Shown: positions 37,175 through 58,882 of the stretch, in pieces
Layout of the letters: every line of letters begins with the position of its first letter
How positions within the stretch are numbered: the first letter of the stretch is position 1
From: Clostridia bacterium
Lineage (GTDB): Bacteria; Bacillota; Clostridia; Oscillospirales; CAG-272
DNA: 64,000 nucleotides
Assembly: GCA_017503325.1 (NCBI GenBank)
Contig: JAFVTI010000038.1
Span: forward strand, 114,428-178,427
Reading direction: 5' to 3'
Program-made: the position numbers and the translations under genes
The notes under the pieces: generated by a model
What the model was told of the DNA's origin: nothing
Databases searched by the model: none
Seen by the model: only the letters and a program-made list of their open reading frames with translations

Positions 37175-37175
<1 letters not shown>

Positions 37176-37789
37176 TGGCTTTACAGACTCAGAATTCGCA
37201 GCTGCAGATCAGCGCGGGACTTTCCAAGCAATTCCCCACCAATCCCATTCCCCAGGTGGCCTTTTCCGGCCGCTCCAACGTGGGCAAAAGCTCTCTTCTC
37301 AACACGCTGCTGGGCAGAAAATCCTTGGCGCGCGTATCCGGTGCGCCCGGCAAGACCATTACGGTCAACTTTTATAACGTAGATAAAAAGCTGTTCCTTG
37401 TTGACCTGCCCGGCTACGGCTTTGCAGCCCGCAAGCCCGAGGACAAGGCCAAGTGGAGCGCACTGACCGACGGGTATTTCACCAACAACCCCAACGTGGA
37501 CCTGCTCTGCCTTGTGCTGCAGCTGGTGGACAGCCGCGTGGGTCTGACACGCGACGACGAGATGATGGTGGATTTTCTCAATCAGAGCGAGATCCCCTAC
37601 GCCATCGTGGCCACCAAGGTGGATAAGCTAAACAAGACCGAGCGTGAAAAGAGCTTTGCCGCGCTGGCGTCTCACCCTCTGATCGCCGAGGGCACGCCCA
37701 TCATTCCCTTCTCCGCGCTCAAGGGAGAGGGAAAGAGCGAGGTCTGGAAGGTAATCTGTGCACACGCGGATCTGCCGACGCCCAACTGA
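37175..37789 (+). CDS. engB: ribosome-biogenesis GTPase YsxC/EngB
   Basis: FSGRSNVGKSSLLN G1 motif, DLPGYG G3 motif, TKVDK G4 motif. TAATG overlap with lon. Confidence 0.9.
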
Positions 37790-37945
37790 TGCCTGCATCG
37801 CTTACGGCGGGCATCAGTAGTGAAATGTTTCGCATAGCGAAACGTGAAATATTTCGCCGAGGGCGAAATGTGAAATTCGCGCTGCGCGCGAGTGATATGT
37901 TTCGCTGCGCGAAACGTTAAGGTGGAAATTTGCCGGGAGGCAAAT
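37786..37945. repeat. array 1: six short perfect stem-loops, five of them preceded by the heptamer GTGAAAT or a variant
   Basis: See findings. Heptamers at 37820, 37844, 37870, 37892 and 37922. Hairpins at 37786-817, 37827-43, 37851-69, 37877-91, 37899-915 and 37928-45. Confidence 0.8.
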
Positions 37946-37991
37946 TTCAATTTAATCAAAATTTTTCTACCTGTTTTACGAGGTAATTCCA

Positions 37992-39314
37992 ATGGTACTT
38001 TATCCCCATTTTGATATCAACGGGCAAGGACACCTGACCGTAGGCGGACTTGACACCGTCAAGCTGGCTGCCGAGTTCGGCACACCCGTCAATATCCTGG
38101 ACGAGAATTATATCCGCTCGCAGATACGCCTTTACAAGGCTTGTGCAGCGCAGTATTTCGGTGCGGATGCGCTTCCGCTCTTTGCATCCAAGGCGCTTTG
38201 CTGTGCCGAGATCTACCGCATCGCGGCAGACGAGGGCATGGGCATTGACTGCGTCTCCCCCGGTGAGCTTTACATTGCCGGCCGCGTAGGCTTCCCCGCA
38301 CAGCGCATCTATTTCCACGGAAACAACAAGACCGATGCCGATCTTGCCATGGCGCTTGACATGGGCGTTGGCACGTTTGTGGTGGACAATCATGAGGAGC
38401 TTTCCTCTCTTGGTGAGCTGGCAAATGCGCGCGGCATGCGTGCGCGCATCCTTCTGCGCATCACGCCCGGCATCGATCCGCACACCCACAAGGCCATCTC
38501 CACCGGTGGCATTGACTCCAAGTTCGGCTCTGCCATCGGCACGGGACAAGCCGAGCAGATCGTGGTATCTGCCTTGAACACCCCCGGCATTGACCTGCAG
38601 GGTCTGCATTGCCACATCGGCTCGCAGATCTTTGACGCGCAGCCCTTCGTGGACGCTGCCGAGATCATGGTCGCTTTTATGGCAGATATGATCCGCAAGC
38701 ACAGAGCCCCCCTTACCGAGCTCAATCTGGGCGGCGGGCTTGGTGTGCGCTACACAGAAGAGCAGTCCACGCTGGATATTGACGGCACCATGAAAACCAT
38801 TGCCGCCAAGGTCAGGGAGCTTTGCCGTGCAAACGAGATCGAGATGCCCCGCGTCATCCTGGAGCCCGGCCGCTCGCTGGTGGCTGCGGCAGGCGTGACG
38901 CTTTACACCGTTGGCTCGGTCAAGGAGATCCCCGGCTTTAAGAATTACGTATCGGTGGACGGCGGCATGGCCGACAACCCCAGATACGCGCTCTACCAGT
39001 CTCCCTACACCGCGCTGATTGCAAATAAGGCCGACCGCCCCGCAGATTTCTGCGCCACGGTTGCGGGCAGATGCTGCGAATCGGGTGACCTCTTGGGCGA
39101 GGGCATGCTACTGCAGTGCCCCGAAAGAGGCGATATTCTCGCTATGCTGGTCACGGGTGCATATCAGCACTCCATGGCCTCCAACTATAACAAGCTTCCC
39201 CGCCCGCCGCTTGTCATGATCAAGGACGGCGAGGCACGCGTCGTGGTGCGCCGCGAGACCTATGAGGATCTCATGGCTTACGACGTCACCGATCCTGTAT
39301 TCAGTACGAGGTAA
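37992..39314 (+). CDS. lysA: diaminopimelate decarboxylase
   Basis: Fold-III PLP decarboxylase: ..FASKALCC.. (PLP Lys region), HIGSQI, GGGLGV, CESGD, GAYQHSMASNYN. Confidence 0.85.
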   Translation: MVLYPHFDINGQGHLTVGGLDTVKLAAEFGTPVNILDENYIRSQIRLYKACAAQYFGADALPLFASKALCCAEIYRIAADEGMGIDCVSPGELYIAGRVGFPAQRIYFHGNNKTDADLAMALDMGVGTFVVDNHEELSSLGELANARGMRARILLRITPGIDPHTHKAISTGGIDSKFGSAIGTGQAEQIVVSALNTPGIDLQGLHCHIGSQIFDAQPFVDAAEIMVAFMADMIRKHRAPLTELNLGGGLGVRYTEEQSTLDIDGTMKTIAAKVRELCRANEIEMPRVILEPGRSLVAAAGVTLYTVGSVKEIPGFKNYVSVDGGMADNPRYALYQSPYTALIANKADRPADFCATVAGRCCESGDLLGEGMLLQCPERGDILAMLVTGAYQHSMASNYNKLPRPPLVMIKDGEARVVVRRETYEDLMAYDVTDPVFSTR

Positions 39315-40841: not shown

Positions 40842-41497
40842 ACGAACAACAAATGCCTACCATAACCGATATCGGCGAAGCCATTGAGGCCATTCTGTTT
40901 GCCGCAGGCTATCCCGTCAAATACGACAAGCTCGCAGAGGTGCTGGGGCTTTCTGCTGCCGATGTCAAGCTGTTTTGCGAGCACATGGCAACCGAGTACG
41001 AAAAGAGCGGCAGAGGCATTCTGATGCTCTGCCTGCCCGAGACCTGCCAGCTGACCACCAAGGAGCAATACATGCCCTATATCCGCGAGGCACTTGGCAT
41101 CAAGAGAGGCGGTAACCTTTCCGCATCCTCCTTAGAGGTGCTTGCCATCGTAGCCTACAATCAGCCCGTGACCCGTGCTTACGTGGACGCGGTGCGCGGT
41201 GTGGACTCCTCTTATGCCGTTGGCTCACTCCTTGACAAGAATCTGATCGAGGCTTGCGGCAGACTGGACGCGCCCGGTCGCCCCATGCTGTACGTCACCA
41301 CAGACAAATTCTTGCGCGTGTTCGGCTTGAATTCACTCTCCGAGCTGCCCGAGACCGAGGCCTTGAGCATTGCAGCCGCACAGGTGGATGCAAACGCCGA
41401 AACTGCGGAGACCGACGAGGCAGAGGCCGCAGAAGAGGCTCTGCCCGAGGGTGAATACACCGAGGTAGCAGAAGACGACGCTCGCGCGGAAATCTGA
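40838..41497 (+). CDS. scpB: segregation and condensation protein B
   Basis: IEAILFAAGYPV...SSLEVLAIVAYNQPVTRAYVDAVRGVDS. ATGA overlap with scpA. Confidence 0.9.
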   Translation: MNEQQMPTITDIGEAIEAILFAAGYPVKYDKLAEVLGLSAADVKLFCEHMATEYEKSGRGILMLCLPETCQLTTKEQYMPYIREALGIKRGGNLSASSLEVLAIVAYNQPVTRAYVDAVRGVDSSYAVGSLLDKNLIEACGRLDAPGRPMLYVTTDKFLRVFGLNSLSELPETEALSIAAAQVDANAETAETDEAEAAEEALPEGEYTEVAEDDARAEI

Positions 41498-41538
41498 TTC
41501 TTACCCAATTTTGAAAATTTCGCGGAAAGGAGGTCGCC

Positions 41539-42327
41539 ATGCCGCCCGTTGTCAGGATTTTATTGATCATACTTGGCATCATCGCAGCGCTGATTGCCGT
41601 GCTTGTGCTCTGGCTGCTGACGCTGCACATCAAAATCAAGATCGGCTACAGAGATACGTTCTCGTTCAAGCTGTACGTGGGAGGAATTCGCGTCGCCTCT
41701 CTTCCCCGTCCGCCCAAGAAGCTGCGCAGGCTGCGTACCTACACCAAGAAAAGAGCCGAAAAGGCTGCAGCAAAATATGCCCGCCAGCCTGAGGATTACC
41801 TCGAAATGGTCCGACAAAACGCGCTTTACCGCGCGCTGATGCAAAAGCGTGCCGAAAAAAACGCGCAAAAAAAGAAAGCCCCCGCCAATGCTGCCGCGCC
41901 CAAGCCCAAGCAGCCCGCGGATAAGCTGAATATCGAGATCCTTATGCAGATGATCGCCGAGATCATCGATGCCTTGTTCGAGGGCACGCGCAAGGGTCTG
42001 CACATCCACGTCTGCCGCCTGCACGTGTTCGTCGTGGGCAAGGATGCCGCCCAGACCGCGCTGATCTGCGGCGGGCTGTGGGCAGCAATCTCCAACCTGC
42101 TGGCCGTGCTGGATGCGCACGCCAAGCTGCGCGTGGGCAAAGCCGACGTCAGCATTGTCCCCGACTACACGGGCGAGAAGACAAAAACCGATTTTTCGCT
42201 GGTCATCTCGTTCGGTGTCGTGCGCACGCTGCACACGCTGCTCTCGCTGATCCCCATTTTCCTGCGTCATAAGGGCTCTCTGCTCATCAAGCAAGCGCCG
42301 ACGCAGCCAAACACGCAAAAACAATGA
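41539..42327 (+). CDS. YtfI-like (DUF2953) sporulation-associated membrane protein
   Basis: N-terminal TM ILLIILGIIAALIAVLVLWLLTLHIKIKIGY. Positioned immediately before gerW, as in other spore formers. Confidence 0.6.
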   Translation: MPPVVRILLIILGIIAALIAVLVLWLLTLHIKIKIGYRDTFSFKLYVGGIRVASLPRPPKKLRRLRTYTKKRAEKAAAKYARQPEDYLEMVRQNALYRALMQKRAEKNAQKKKAPANAAAPKPKQPADKLNIEILMQMIAEIIDALFEGTRKGLHIHVCRLHVFVVGKDAAQTALICGGLWAAISNLLAVLDAHAKLRVGKADVSIVPDYTGEKTKTDFSLVISFGVVRTLHTLLSLIPIFLRHKGSLLIKQAPTQPNTQKQ

Positions 42328-57295: not shown

Positions 57296-57400
57296 ACCGC
57301 ATAAAAAATCAGGGGTGCTGAAGGCCAAGAGCCAACGGCTGAGATGCGCAGGCGCGCGAACCCTTAACCTGATACGGATAATACCGGCGTAGGAAGATTT
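57296..57400 (+). promoter_or_regulatory. TPP (THI-box) riboswitch
   Basis: CAGGGGTGC...GGCTGAGA...GAACCCTTAACCTGATACGGATAATACCGGCGTAGGAAG matches the THI-element core. Confidence 0.9.
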
Positions 57401-57425
57401 GCACATACTTGAGATAGGAATTCCT

Positions 57426-57647: not shown

Positions 57648-58319
57648 ATGAATACCTCACAAAAAACCAAACGTCTGACCGTCAGCGCGATCATGCTGGC
57701 AACCGCGGTCATTCTCGCGCTGATCAGCTCGCCCATCCCGCCCCTGCCCTTTGGCGGCAGCTTCACCATTGCAAGCATGCTTCCCATCGTGCTGATTGCC
57801 TACATGTACGGCACCAAATGGGGACTGTTTTGTGCGTTTACCTACTCGGTCATTCAGATCATCATGGACCTGATGCTTGGCAAGGGCTCAACCCTGCTTG
57901 CCTATTTCCTGCCCTCAAGCGAGGACTTTATGGGCTTTGGCGTCGCGATCGGCATTTTGCTGCTTGACTACTTCGTTGCCTACACCGTGCTGGGTCTTGG
58001 CGGCGTATTGAGAAACAAGATGCACAAGGTGCCTGCCATCATCCTTGGCGTGCTCATCGCGCTTGGCGCACGCTACGCAGTGCACATTGGCTCGGGATTT
58101 CTCTTCTTTGCATCGTGGGCAGAATGGTTCTTTACTCAAGAGAGCATTTACGCAATCGGCAGCGTCATTCTCGACACCTTCAGCGGGCACGTGCTGTCCA
58201 TCGTTTACTCGATCATCTACAATGGCACCTACATGATCCCCGAGATCGTGATCACCGCCATCTGTTCCTCGGGCGTTGCATGGATCCCCTACATCAAGAA
58301 ATACGACGTCAAGTCTTGA
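57648..58319 (+). CDS. thiT: thiamine transporter ThiT/YuaJ (ECF S-component-like)
   Basis: Six predicted TM segments. Immediately downstream of the TPP riboswitch. SD AAAGGAGGAGG. Confidence 0.75.
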   Translation: MNTSQKTKRLTVSAIMLATAVILALISSPIPPLPFGGSFTIASMLPIVLIAYMYGTKWGLFCAFTYSVIQIIMDLMLGKGSTLLAYFLPSSEDFMGFGVAIGILLLDYFVAYTVLGLGGVLRNKMHKVPAIILGVLIALGARYAVHIGSGFLFFASWAEWFFTQESIYAIGSVILDTFSGHVLSIVYSIIYNGTYMIPEIVITAICSSGVAWIPYIKKYDVKS

Positions 58320-58350: not shown

Positions 58351-58714
58351 TGCAGCTTGGCTAAACGGCCGCGCCGTATGTTGCCGAAAGGTATTACGGT
58401 GAGGAAAGTCCGGGCTTTACAGGGCAAGGGTAGCTGATAACGTCAGCCGCGGGTAACCGCCGGGAAAGTGCAACAGAAATAAACCGCCGCGCATGCGGTA
58501 AGGATGGAAAGGCGAGGTAAGAGCTCACCCACTTCTATGGTAACATAGATTTGCTGTAAACCCTACTCAAAGCAACACCGTTCGGGGAATGTCTGCCCGA
58601 CAGCCGCAAGGACCCGATGGGTGGCATGAGCGTTATGCTCGGAGCTTCTTGGTGACAAGGAGCAAAGATAGATGGCCGTTCTCGACAGAACCCGGCTTAC
58701 AGGCAAAGCTGCAA
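58351..58714 (+). ncRNA. rnpB: RNase P RNA (bacterial type A-like)
   Basis: GAGGAAAGTCCGGGC (P4 5' strand), AGTGCAACAGAAA, ACAGAACCCGGCTTAC (P4 3' strand). P1 pairs GCAGCTTGGC with GCAAAGCTGC. TGTGCTATAAT promoter at 58334-44. Confidence 0.9.
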
Positions 58715-58755
58715 AAAACGCTGACGCGTTGCGTCAGCGTTTTTTGCAGCTTTGC
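58703..58755. terminator. 25-bp perfect inverted repeat (bidirectional terminator) overlapping the rnpB 3' end
   Basis: GCAAAGCTGCAAAAAACGCTGACGC-GTT-GCGTCAGCGTTTTTTGCAGCTTTGC. Confidence 0.8.
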
Positions 58756-58756
58756 A

Positions 58757-58882
58757 GTTATGATTGCCCTGCGGGCAGCTTGAAGTAACAAGGGAAATCA
58801 TATCATAACGATGCGAAGCATCTCATAACTTTTGCCGCAGGCAAAATCATAACGCTTGCAAAGCAAGCTCATAACTCATAAC
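58757..58882. repeat. array 2: short perfect stem-loops separated by the heptamer TCATAAC
   Basis: TCATAAC at 58803, 58823, 58847, 58869 and 58876. Inverted GTTATGA at 58757. Hairpins at 58765-77, 58810-22, 58830-46 and 58854-68. Confidence 0.8.

Follow-up and report, generated by a model that had tools for sequence, protein, structure and literature searches.

A 64-kb window of a Clostridia genome (assembly GCA_017503325.1, contig JAFVTI010000038.1) carries, between the genes of an EngB-like GTPase and a LysA-like decarboxylase, a 202-nt spacer that holds a train of tiny perfect hairpins joined by the heptamer GTGAAAT. We refer to this train as array 1. The window is the whole stretch of DNA that was analysed; all coordinates are positions in it, and L-numbers (e.g., L215) denote related loci fetched for comparison. 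The parts of the locus are as follows.

37175..37789, + strand: upstream gene for an EngB-like GTPase (open reading frame, ORF; Pfam MMR_HSR1)
37785..37818, + strand: H0, a long 5' hairpin with arms 37785-37796 and 37807-37818
37820..37843, + strand: unit 1, tag GTGAAAT (37820-26) and hairpin GTTTCGC-ATA-GCGAAAC (37827-43)
37844..37869, + strand: unit 2, tag GTGAAAT (37844-50) and hairpin ATTTCGCC-GAG-GGCGAAAT (37851-69)
37870..37891, + strand: unit 3, tag GTGAAAT (37870-76) and hairpin TCGCGC-TGC-GCGCGA (37877-91), covarying (helix 1)
37892..37915, + strand: unit 4, tag GTGATAT (37892-98) and hairpin GTTTCGC-TGC-GCGAAAC (37899-915), covarying (helix 2)
37916..37924, + strand: degenerate last tag and linker GTTAAGGTG, the tag being GTTAAG (37916-21)
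37925..37948, + strand: terminal 10-bp hairpin GAAATTTGCC-GGGA-GGCAAATTTC (helix 3 of the covariation analysis)
37949..37991, + strand: A/T-rich variable tail with the lysA ribosome-binding site GAGG (37980-83), outside the repeat element
37992..39314, + strand: downstream lysA-like gene (diaminopimelate/ornithine decarboxylase family; ORF, Pfam)
37818..37903, + strand: stretch aligned to the covariance model of Rfam Gut-1 (score 48.0 bits, against a gathering score of 50)

A first-pass annotation, made from the letters of this DNA, had described most of these parts, and on re-reading all of its hairpin and tag coordinates were correct. It had given H0 as about 11 bp across the engB stop codon, which agrees with 11 of 12 positions being paired and with the TGA (37787-37789) lying inside the 5' arm. 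Its count of five units stands for the four tagged hairpins, but the "fifth" is more aptly seen as a degenerate tag, GTTAAG, with a conserved 10-bp hairpin behind it. The whole composite of about 165 nt comprises H0, four GTGAWAT-tagged hairpins, the degenerate tag and the terminal hairpin. Its four tagged hairpins are perfect and mutually different, with stems of 5–8 bp and mostly 3-nt loops. Across copies the leading GT alone of the last tag is invariant, and the terminal hairpin has kept its stem in all of them, its loop being free. Downstream of the element, CTACC...GAGGTA (37966-37985) could pair and mask the Shine-Dalgarno sequence of lysA; among the relatives, only L213 shares the CTACCTG segment with the window.

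The heptamer GTGAAAT occurs 5 times in the 64 kb, against 8.8 expected, and three of these five fall inside array 1. Spaced tag pairs were found twice, with 0.01 expected. The RNA folding energy is -93.6 kcal/mol, compared with -60.2 +/- 4.6 for shuffles (z = -7.3). A detector written for chains of tags and hairpins reported array 1 and one other array in the window, and nothing in 5 shuffles. Tandem Repeats Finder gave no match in array 1 because the hairpins differ from one another.

The first-pass annotation had held that a match to an already catalogued repeat family would undo the novelty of the array. Judged by covariance-model alignment, array 1 is one more copy of a motif already in the catalogue, Gut-1 (Rfam RF01706), and as a motif it is not new. 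The Gut-1 model aligned over its full length (positions 1-77) to 37818-37903 and scored 2 bits below the gathering score (E = 2e-8 over 601 nt and 2e-6 over the whole window). Its consensus reads UGAAAU-hairpin-GUGAAAU-hairpin-GUGAAAU-hairpin-GUGAAAU, and array 1 has the hallmark of the family, at least three short hairpins split by (G)UGAAAU or GUGAUAU and with covarying stems. Scores are higher in the engB-lysA orthologues (L215 53.3, L226 52.6 and L220 50.5 bits), in paralogues at the scpB site (57.7, 52.2 and 50.8 bits) and in other copies (L321 56.6, L334 54.3, L303 51.8 and L217:18853 50.0 bits). Since orthologues and paralogues pass the gathering score, the remaining doubt about the Gut-1 identity is removed.

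The 43 representatives from which Gut-1 was described all came from human-gut metagenomes and were tied to neither an organism nor a function (Weinberg et al. 2010, PMC2864571). It was filed as a noncoding RNA and rated as certainly RNA (PMC2864571), and its Rfam type is small RNA. The codon marks in the alignment of Weinberg et al. comprise 19 same-strand and 9 opposite-strand stop codons, for which the marks do not give positions. Literature searches for "Gut-1 RNA" and for GUGAAAU/GTGAAAT found nothing relevant beyond the 2010 paper. The published motif and our copies have a common architecture, (G)UGAAAU or GUGAUAU tags alternating with short variable hairpins, and in both cases a gut origin. 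They differ in three respects. Gut-1 was described from the human gut, whereas the present copies lie in metagenome-assembled genomes (MAGs) of animal-gut Oscillospiraceae/Eubacteriales, inside an operon. The 77-nt model omits the larger composite of H0, four units and terminal hairpin. Finally, both the Gut-1 seeds and copies in IMG/VR contain an inverted second half-array (hairpin + ATWTCAC) that is absent from the Rfam model.

Array 1 is neither a riboswitch, a terminator nor an operator. G+C-rich hairpins in a spacer upstream of lysA do resemble intrinsic terminators or a lysine riboswitch (L-box), but the U tracts of the former are missing here, and the Lysine riboswitch has no Rfam match at E ≤ 10 locally or at E ≤ 1 over the window. 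Between 37600 and 38100 no + strand promoter is predicted, and the one weak consensus match to an intrinsic terminator lies inside unit 3; none of the hairpins is followed by a T run. The first-pass annotation had likewise seen no L-box, no terminator and no lysA promoter, and had suggested co-transcription. With neither promoter nor terminator in the spacer, the element must therefore be transcribed in sense inside the lon-engB-lysA mRNA and must fold into a train of hairpins. The 30-nt engB-lysA spacer of the array-less relative L216 was also used as evidence for co-transcription. A further idea, that neighbouring units pair in a shifted register and so form a two-state switch, did not hold up: what can form is a cross-helix that joins units 1 and 4, whose stems are identical, and this pairing is specific to the present strain and not conserved in relatives. 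The practical message for annotation is modest, namely that the engB-lysA spacer contains a known repeat and not a lysine-responsive regulator.

Covariation was analysed on a 14-sequence alignment, in three well-aligned hairpins, and identities were tabulated over 11 orthologues. In the three hairpins 98.8% of the cells are paired and five pairs have changed on both sides, a result that 0 of 500 shuffles reach; sliding the register of the alignment leaves at most 57% paired. RNAalifold arrives at the same hairpins. Tags have a pairwise identity of 0.89 and stems one of 0.88, compared with 0.60-0.68 at the fourfold sites of engB and lysA, 0.53 in the tail past the terminal hairpin and 0.35 in the loops. 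Tags and stems are more alike than fourfold sites and are thus being maintained, either selectively or through conversion from copy to copy. The turnover of loops exceeds that of synonymous sites.

How did the element come to lie in this spacer? A scan for EngB in species-representative genomes yielded 80 loci, all from MAGs of uncultured Oscillospiraceae, Eubacteriales or Clostridia of animal guts. Species with at least 88% EngB identity have kept the engB-lysA synteny, and all but one have an array in the spacer, of three to five units with GTGAAAT, GTGATAT or decayed GTGATGY tags. The exception is L216 (94% EngB identity), where the site is empty. More distant species have neither lysA at that position nor an array. 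Across 1.25 Mb of relatives' loci nearly all arrays are confined to the close clade, and almost none occur in about 1 Mb of distant relatives. The comparison shows that the element arrived between engB and lysA in the ancestor of one small, uncultured clade of gut Oscillospiraceae.

The first-pass annotation had recommended searching relatives for further copies and for covariation. Besides the covarying stems, this gave homologous copies at no fewer than five unrelated sites, with presence differing between species: engB|lysA, scpB, proA|proC, a tRNA gene and an rsuA-like gene. The spacer between scpB and the next gene contains the element in L214, L215 and L226 and is empty in the window (41497-41540), L213, L217 and L220. 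A metagenome scan with the terminal hairpin led to the three other sites, between proA and proC (L334), downstream of tRNA-Thr (L321) and upstream of an rsuA-like pseudouridine-synthase gene, there in antisense (L303). In numbers, the terminal-hairpin pattern returned 64 loci from JGI metagenomes, 3 of them with the element, and 0 matches in IMG/VR. Blastn of the array against annotated phages and plasmids gave no match. Between filled and empty scpB sites there is no target duplication, and only TTTC(C/A) is common to the right junction. Nor does the element look like a miniature inverted-repeat transposable element: its ends differ (H0 on the left, GAAATTTGCC..GGCAAATTTC on the right), and it has no terminal inverted repeats.

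The 17 copies at the five sites have one module order: H0 (where present), then ATTTYGC(C)-type, (G)TTTGC-type and TCGCGC/CCGCAC-type hairpins, followed by a GTTYCGC/ATTGCGCC-type hairpin, GTTRNG and the terminal hairpin. H0 of the window is homologous to H0 in L222, L226, the scpB-site copies and L303. The window and L213 (98% EngB identity) have units 3 and 4, with their loops, and the terminal hairpin in common, and differ in H0, tags 1-3 and units 1-2. As far as sequence can tell, this mosaic suggests that exchange between copies may have taken place. MAG and metagenome contigs often end in or beside arrays (L223, L224, L225, L367, L368), which is consistent with repeats or strain variation confusing assemblers.

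The family is wider than the copies of this clade. IMG/VR was scanned with three tags (GTGAWAT, GTGAAAT and GTGATAT), each giving at least 120 matches. Among the GTGAWAT and GTGAAAT matches listed, about 10% of the loci are real arrays and the rest ordinary tandem repeats; the GTGATAT scan added almost no new arrays among the matches listed. The tag GTGAWAT occurs in 46 distinct arrays. Many "full" elements were found in Rfam seeds and IMG/VR contigs, in which a forward half-array precedes an inverted one (hairpin + ATTTCAC or ATATCAC). They are often wedged between two convergent terminators or lie beside tRNA genes or tRNA fragments, an association with tRNA or attachment sites that extends to only some copies. 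The phage fragment L153 (SPP1-type portal, scaffold, P22-type coat) has a forward array (1516-1583) right behind the portal gene, the first tag supplying the portal stop codon, and a full forward and inverted element (2622-2977) just before the coat gene.

Full elements (L216 18730-18990; L162, L168, L171, L202) also carry a long-range bracket. In the GTGATAT type the left-end TTTATTCGCC (TATATTCGCC in Rfam seeds) is complementary to the central GGCGAATAAA (GGCGAATATA in seeds); in the GTGAAAT type the central GAAATAAATCC is complementary to the right-end GGATTTATTTC. Each half of a full element could therefore fold as a closed multi-hairpin domain. Some full elements of the GTGAAAT type abut a truncated transposase fragment (L171 285-698, L165 405-818, L178 1610-2023, L126 282-566), a 138-aa ORF in the first three and a 94-aa fragment in L126, which we take to be IS256-like. 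No neighbouring protein recurs: a four-helix-bundle protein, a DUF2493-like protein, an integrase and the IS256 fragment were each non-recurring.

We consider array 1 to be a copy of a dispersed repeat of tags and mini-hairpins, the Gut-1 family, that resembles repetitive extragenic palindromes (REPs) and bacterial interspersed mosaic elements (BIMEs) and has become fixed in the engB-lysA spacer of one clade. We would put the probability of this reading at roughly 0.55. Three roles had been proposed in the first-pass annotation, a platform for an RNA-binding protein, a REP/BIME/BOX-like repeat family and tandem DNA operators, and the second fares best, given five or more unrelated sites and presence that varies between species. 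Locally, the array would act as structural punctuation of the mRNA, either as a decay barrier or as a processing site. It could stop 3' exonucleases and so protect the engB segment, and its single-stranded G/AAAU linkers may be open to endonucleolytic processing. Translation of lysA would be left intact because the element ends about 30 nt short of the ribosome-binding site. The family as a whole may spread via a single-stranded DNA stage, in which a putative enzyme would read the hairpins (C-G closed, with GNA/GNRA loops, on one strand) plus the tag, as RAYT does on GTAG-tagged REPs.

More doubtful, and offered tentatively, is the wider proposal that Gut-1 arrays are the Clostridial counterpart of REPs and BIMEs. 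Here a constant 7-nt tag, diverging perfect mini-hairpins and polar loops would belong to a system found in gut Oscillospiraceae as well as in their phages, propagated by a putative enzyme via single-stranded DNA and possibly kept by hosts as intercistronic mRNA punctuation. If this is true, Clostridia own a REP-like system, and an orphan "small RNA" of 2010 should be reclassified as a new class of mobile tagged-hairpin DNA. The combination of constant tag, variable perfect hairpins and polar loops would then raise the question of which enzyme or RNA-binding protein reads them.

Since 2010 Rfam has listed Gut-1 as a small RNA of the human gut alone, without organism, context or function. To this we add a host lineage (uncultured Oscillospiraceae/Eubacteriales of animal guts, plus phages), contexts (operon spacers behind stop codons, positions behind tRNA and RNase P RNA genes and between convergent terminators) and population behaviour (paralogues, species-variable presence and mosaic structure). 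These results suggest that Gut-1 is a dispersed repeat and not a single small-RNA gene. Lineage, contexts, dispersal and loop polarity together make the question of what Gut-1 is a testable one.

Signals at the DNA level come from the hairpins themselves. Among 98 distinct hairpins in 51 arrays, 61 have 3-nt loops, 87 have a C-G closing pair and none has a wobble pair. The loops are strand-polar: on the tag strand they follow C(TNC)G, as TGC, TTC, TTT or TGT, and on the other strand they read GCA, GAA, AAA, ACA and GNRA. d(GNA) triloops are very stable, with a stability that depends strongly on the closing pair (PMC3201870), and mini-hairpins of sequence GCGNAGC or GCGNNAGC stand out for their extraordinary stability (PMC13037366). 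A d(GNA) loop closed by C-G is the classic form of a hyperstable DNA mini-hairpin (PMC3201870, PMC13037366). Many members of the family also lie where little transcription is expected, behind terminators or between convergent terminators.

Several observations weigh against our preferred reading. Conservation of tags and stems at one orthologous locus points to local selection or conversion and not to a decaying selfish insert. Neither terminal inverted repeats nor target duplications can be defined. Units never occur singly in any array, unlike REPs, and each unit of an array has its own stem. In the fragments analysed, the window has 2 arrays in its 64 kb, and the count reaches 3 in the 19 kb of L214. 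Tblastn with approximate IS200 TnpA and RAYT queries found no match in 3.6 Mb, which is a weak test. RNA-level and DNA-level signals conflict, and the stable-loop strand is the antisense strand at the array of the window. At 9 of 10 sites a solo array has the same sense as the gene or tRNA upstream of it, the L303 copy being antisense to its neighbour (two-sided binomial p of about 0.02, calculated by hand for sites that are not all independent); these contexts were judged by eye and with Pfam, automatic ORF-based orientation calls being unreliable in G+C-rich DNA. The tag ends (AU, then GU) extend each stem by an A-U pair and an invariant U.G pair, in RNA only.

The last two points also speak for the alternative that survives best, in which the array is an RNA device selected by the host. 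On this account an intercistronic or 3'-untranslated-region module, with tags that serve a protein as binding or cleavage sites (for instance an RNA chaperone or an endonuclease of the RNase Y type), sets the relative stability or expression of neighbouring cistrons, and dispersal is secondary. The sense orientation includes phage late operons, where replication bias is an unlikely cause, and arrays begin 0-40 nt past stop codons. The stem-extending pairs are kept as G.U or C-G in the tag variants GTGATGT and GTGATGC. Tag position 1 is relaxed in the first tag only (A in 10 of 46 first tags vs 2 of 78 inner tags), and GT alone is kept past the last unit. The sense RNA also folds better than the antisense (-93.6 vs -76.9 kcal/mol), tags and stems exceed synonymous sites in conservation, and Weinberg et al. 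had rated Gut-1 as certainly RNA.

The same account has difficulty with the near absence of wobble pairs, which is unusual for RNA helices that vary so much: of 471 stem pairs, 465 (98.7%) are Watson-Crick and 3 are T.G, and the 98 hairpins contain none. The special loops, C(GNA)G and GNRA, lie on the antisense strand, many members (array 2 of the window included) sit behind or between terminators, and the L303 copy is antisense to its neighbour. Stem mismatches are too few to assign an RNA strand (G.T 3-4 vs A.C 2-3). We hold a host-selected RNA device to be rather unlikely.

The perfection of the stems could also have a mutational origin. Neutral quasi-palindromes, with neither function nor mobility, might be kept perfect by intrastrand template switching and spread by segmental duplication. 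Near-perfect Watson-Crick stems, abrupt double-sided changes in the arms and loops that evolve faster than synonymous sites are all in keeping with this, as is an inverted loop, CGTTG -> CAACG, between strains in the neighbouring rnpB terminator. Template switching, however, leaves unexplained the conserved tag, the C-G closing pairs (87/98), the strand-polar loops, the identical module order at five unlinked sites and the arrays in compact phage operons, and we regard it as improbable.

In CsrB/RsmZ sponges, a repeated single-stranded motif between hairpins is presented to a protein, and the arrangement of Gut-1 recalls this logic. A stand-alone small RNA gene, maybe a sponge presenting repeated GUGAAAU to a protein, would also agree with the small-RNA class in Rfam and with the treatment of Gut-1 among noncoding RNAs by Weinberg et al. 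Yet no promoter or terminator is predicted at engB-lysA, the array fills the intercistronic spacer and touches the upstream stop codon, and other copies lie directly behind terminators, with no room for a promoter. Such a gene therefore seems very improbable. Equally hard to credit are duplex-DNA binding sites, either operators or sites of the arm type, at which a transcription factor or recombinase would read GTGAWAT or the palindromes (among them the TTTCGC-N3-GCGAAA operators of the first-pass annotation): tags that form direct repeats in each half-array but are inverted from one half to the other, as at transposon ends or attP arms, and arrays beside tRNA fragments and an integrase gene would suit them, but stems change in a compensatory manner between orthologues, palindrome sequences are not conserved between units or orthologues, tag spacing runs from 22 to 28 nt without helical phasing, no integrase or regulator lies near engB-lysA, and duplex binding does not require perfect hairpins with polar loops.

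Our preferred reading, a dispersed REP/BIME-like repeat, rests on a likeness that is only partial. REPINs are mobilised by RAYT transposases, which recognise GTAG-tagged REPs, and REP copy number often exceeds 100 per genome. REPs have an unpaired tag at one end and short loops, form inverted or tandem groups, and lie downstream of ORFs between unidirectional or convergent genes (PMC3733652); the tags of REP families are GTAG or CGTC (Di Nocera 2013, PMC3733652). The arrays resemble them in the short palindrome with a conserved unpaired tag at one end, the very short loops, the tandem and inverted grouping and the dispersal in spacers downstream of ORFs, many copies being co-transcribed. They differ in their tag, which is the 7-nt GTGAWAT and neither GTAG nor CGTC, and in their stems: a REP family has a common stem, whereas here stems are common only to the same module of paralogous copies. 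Units abut with the tag as sole spacer and are never single, and the hosts are Clostridia, a group not mentioned in PMC3733652.

Palindrome-associated transposable elements (PATEs) derived from IS200/IS605 are similar in using hairpins as landmarks, in lacking terminal inverted repeats, in strand polarity and in clean-looking loss at polymorphic sites. In contrast to PATEs, no transposase, cleavage tetranucleotide or left/right end pair is shown here, and there are 4-5 serial hairpins instead of one per end. CRISPR arrays likewise alternate a constant short repeat with a variable segment at a regular period, but here the logic is inverted: the constant part measures only 7 nt, and what varies is a hairpin of 11-21 nt that pairs with itself. 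In addition, cas genes are missing, and homologous "spacers" are found again at paralogous sites. We also considered parS, Rex and CRP-like operator readings of the tag, and dropped them for want of a palindromic partner half-site beside the tags.

The second array of the window differs in its tag and lies next to the RNase P RNA gene, at these positions.

58353-58715: RNase P RNA class A (rnpB), 226.5 bits, with promoter-like TTGACT...TATAAT and a strong terminator at about 58703-58755
58757-58882: array 2, tag GTTATGA/TCATAAC, between the RNase P RNA terminator and the promoter of an Fe-type alcohol dehydrogenase (Fe-ADH) gene

Array 2 begins with one forward unit, GTTATGA + TGCCC-TGC-GGGCA, and a short centre, followed by five TCATAAC tags with three hairpins between them (loops GAA, GCA and AAA). 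It has no Rfam Gut-1 match, and no further arrays of the GTTATGA type were found in IMG/VR. In L367 the first hairpin of array 2 has the loop TTC instead of TGC. Compared with the window at 58716-58746, the rnpB terminator loop of L367 is exactly reverse-complemented, the CGTTG -> CAACG change noted above, which is of the kind made by intrastrand template switching.

Two minor features of the window may be added. A thiamine pyrophosphate (TPP) riboswitch (67.9 bits, 57301-57412) lies upstream of a ThiT/YuaJ-type thiamine transporter gene (57648-58319), an ordinary arrangement. In every 8-kb block the + strand has a negative GC skew (mean -0.045), yet the lon-engB-lysA-scpAB cluster is on the + strand; the cluster may be head-on to replication, or the lineage may have an unusual skew.

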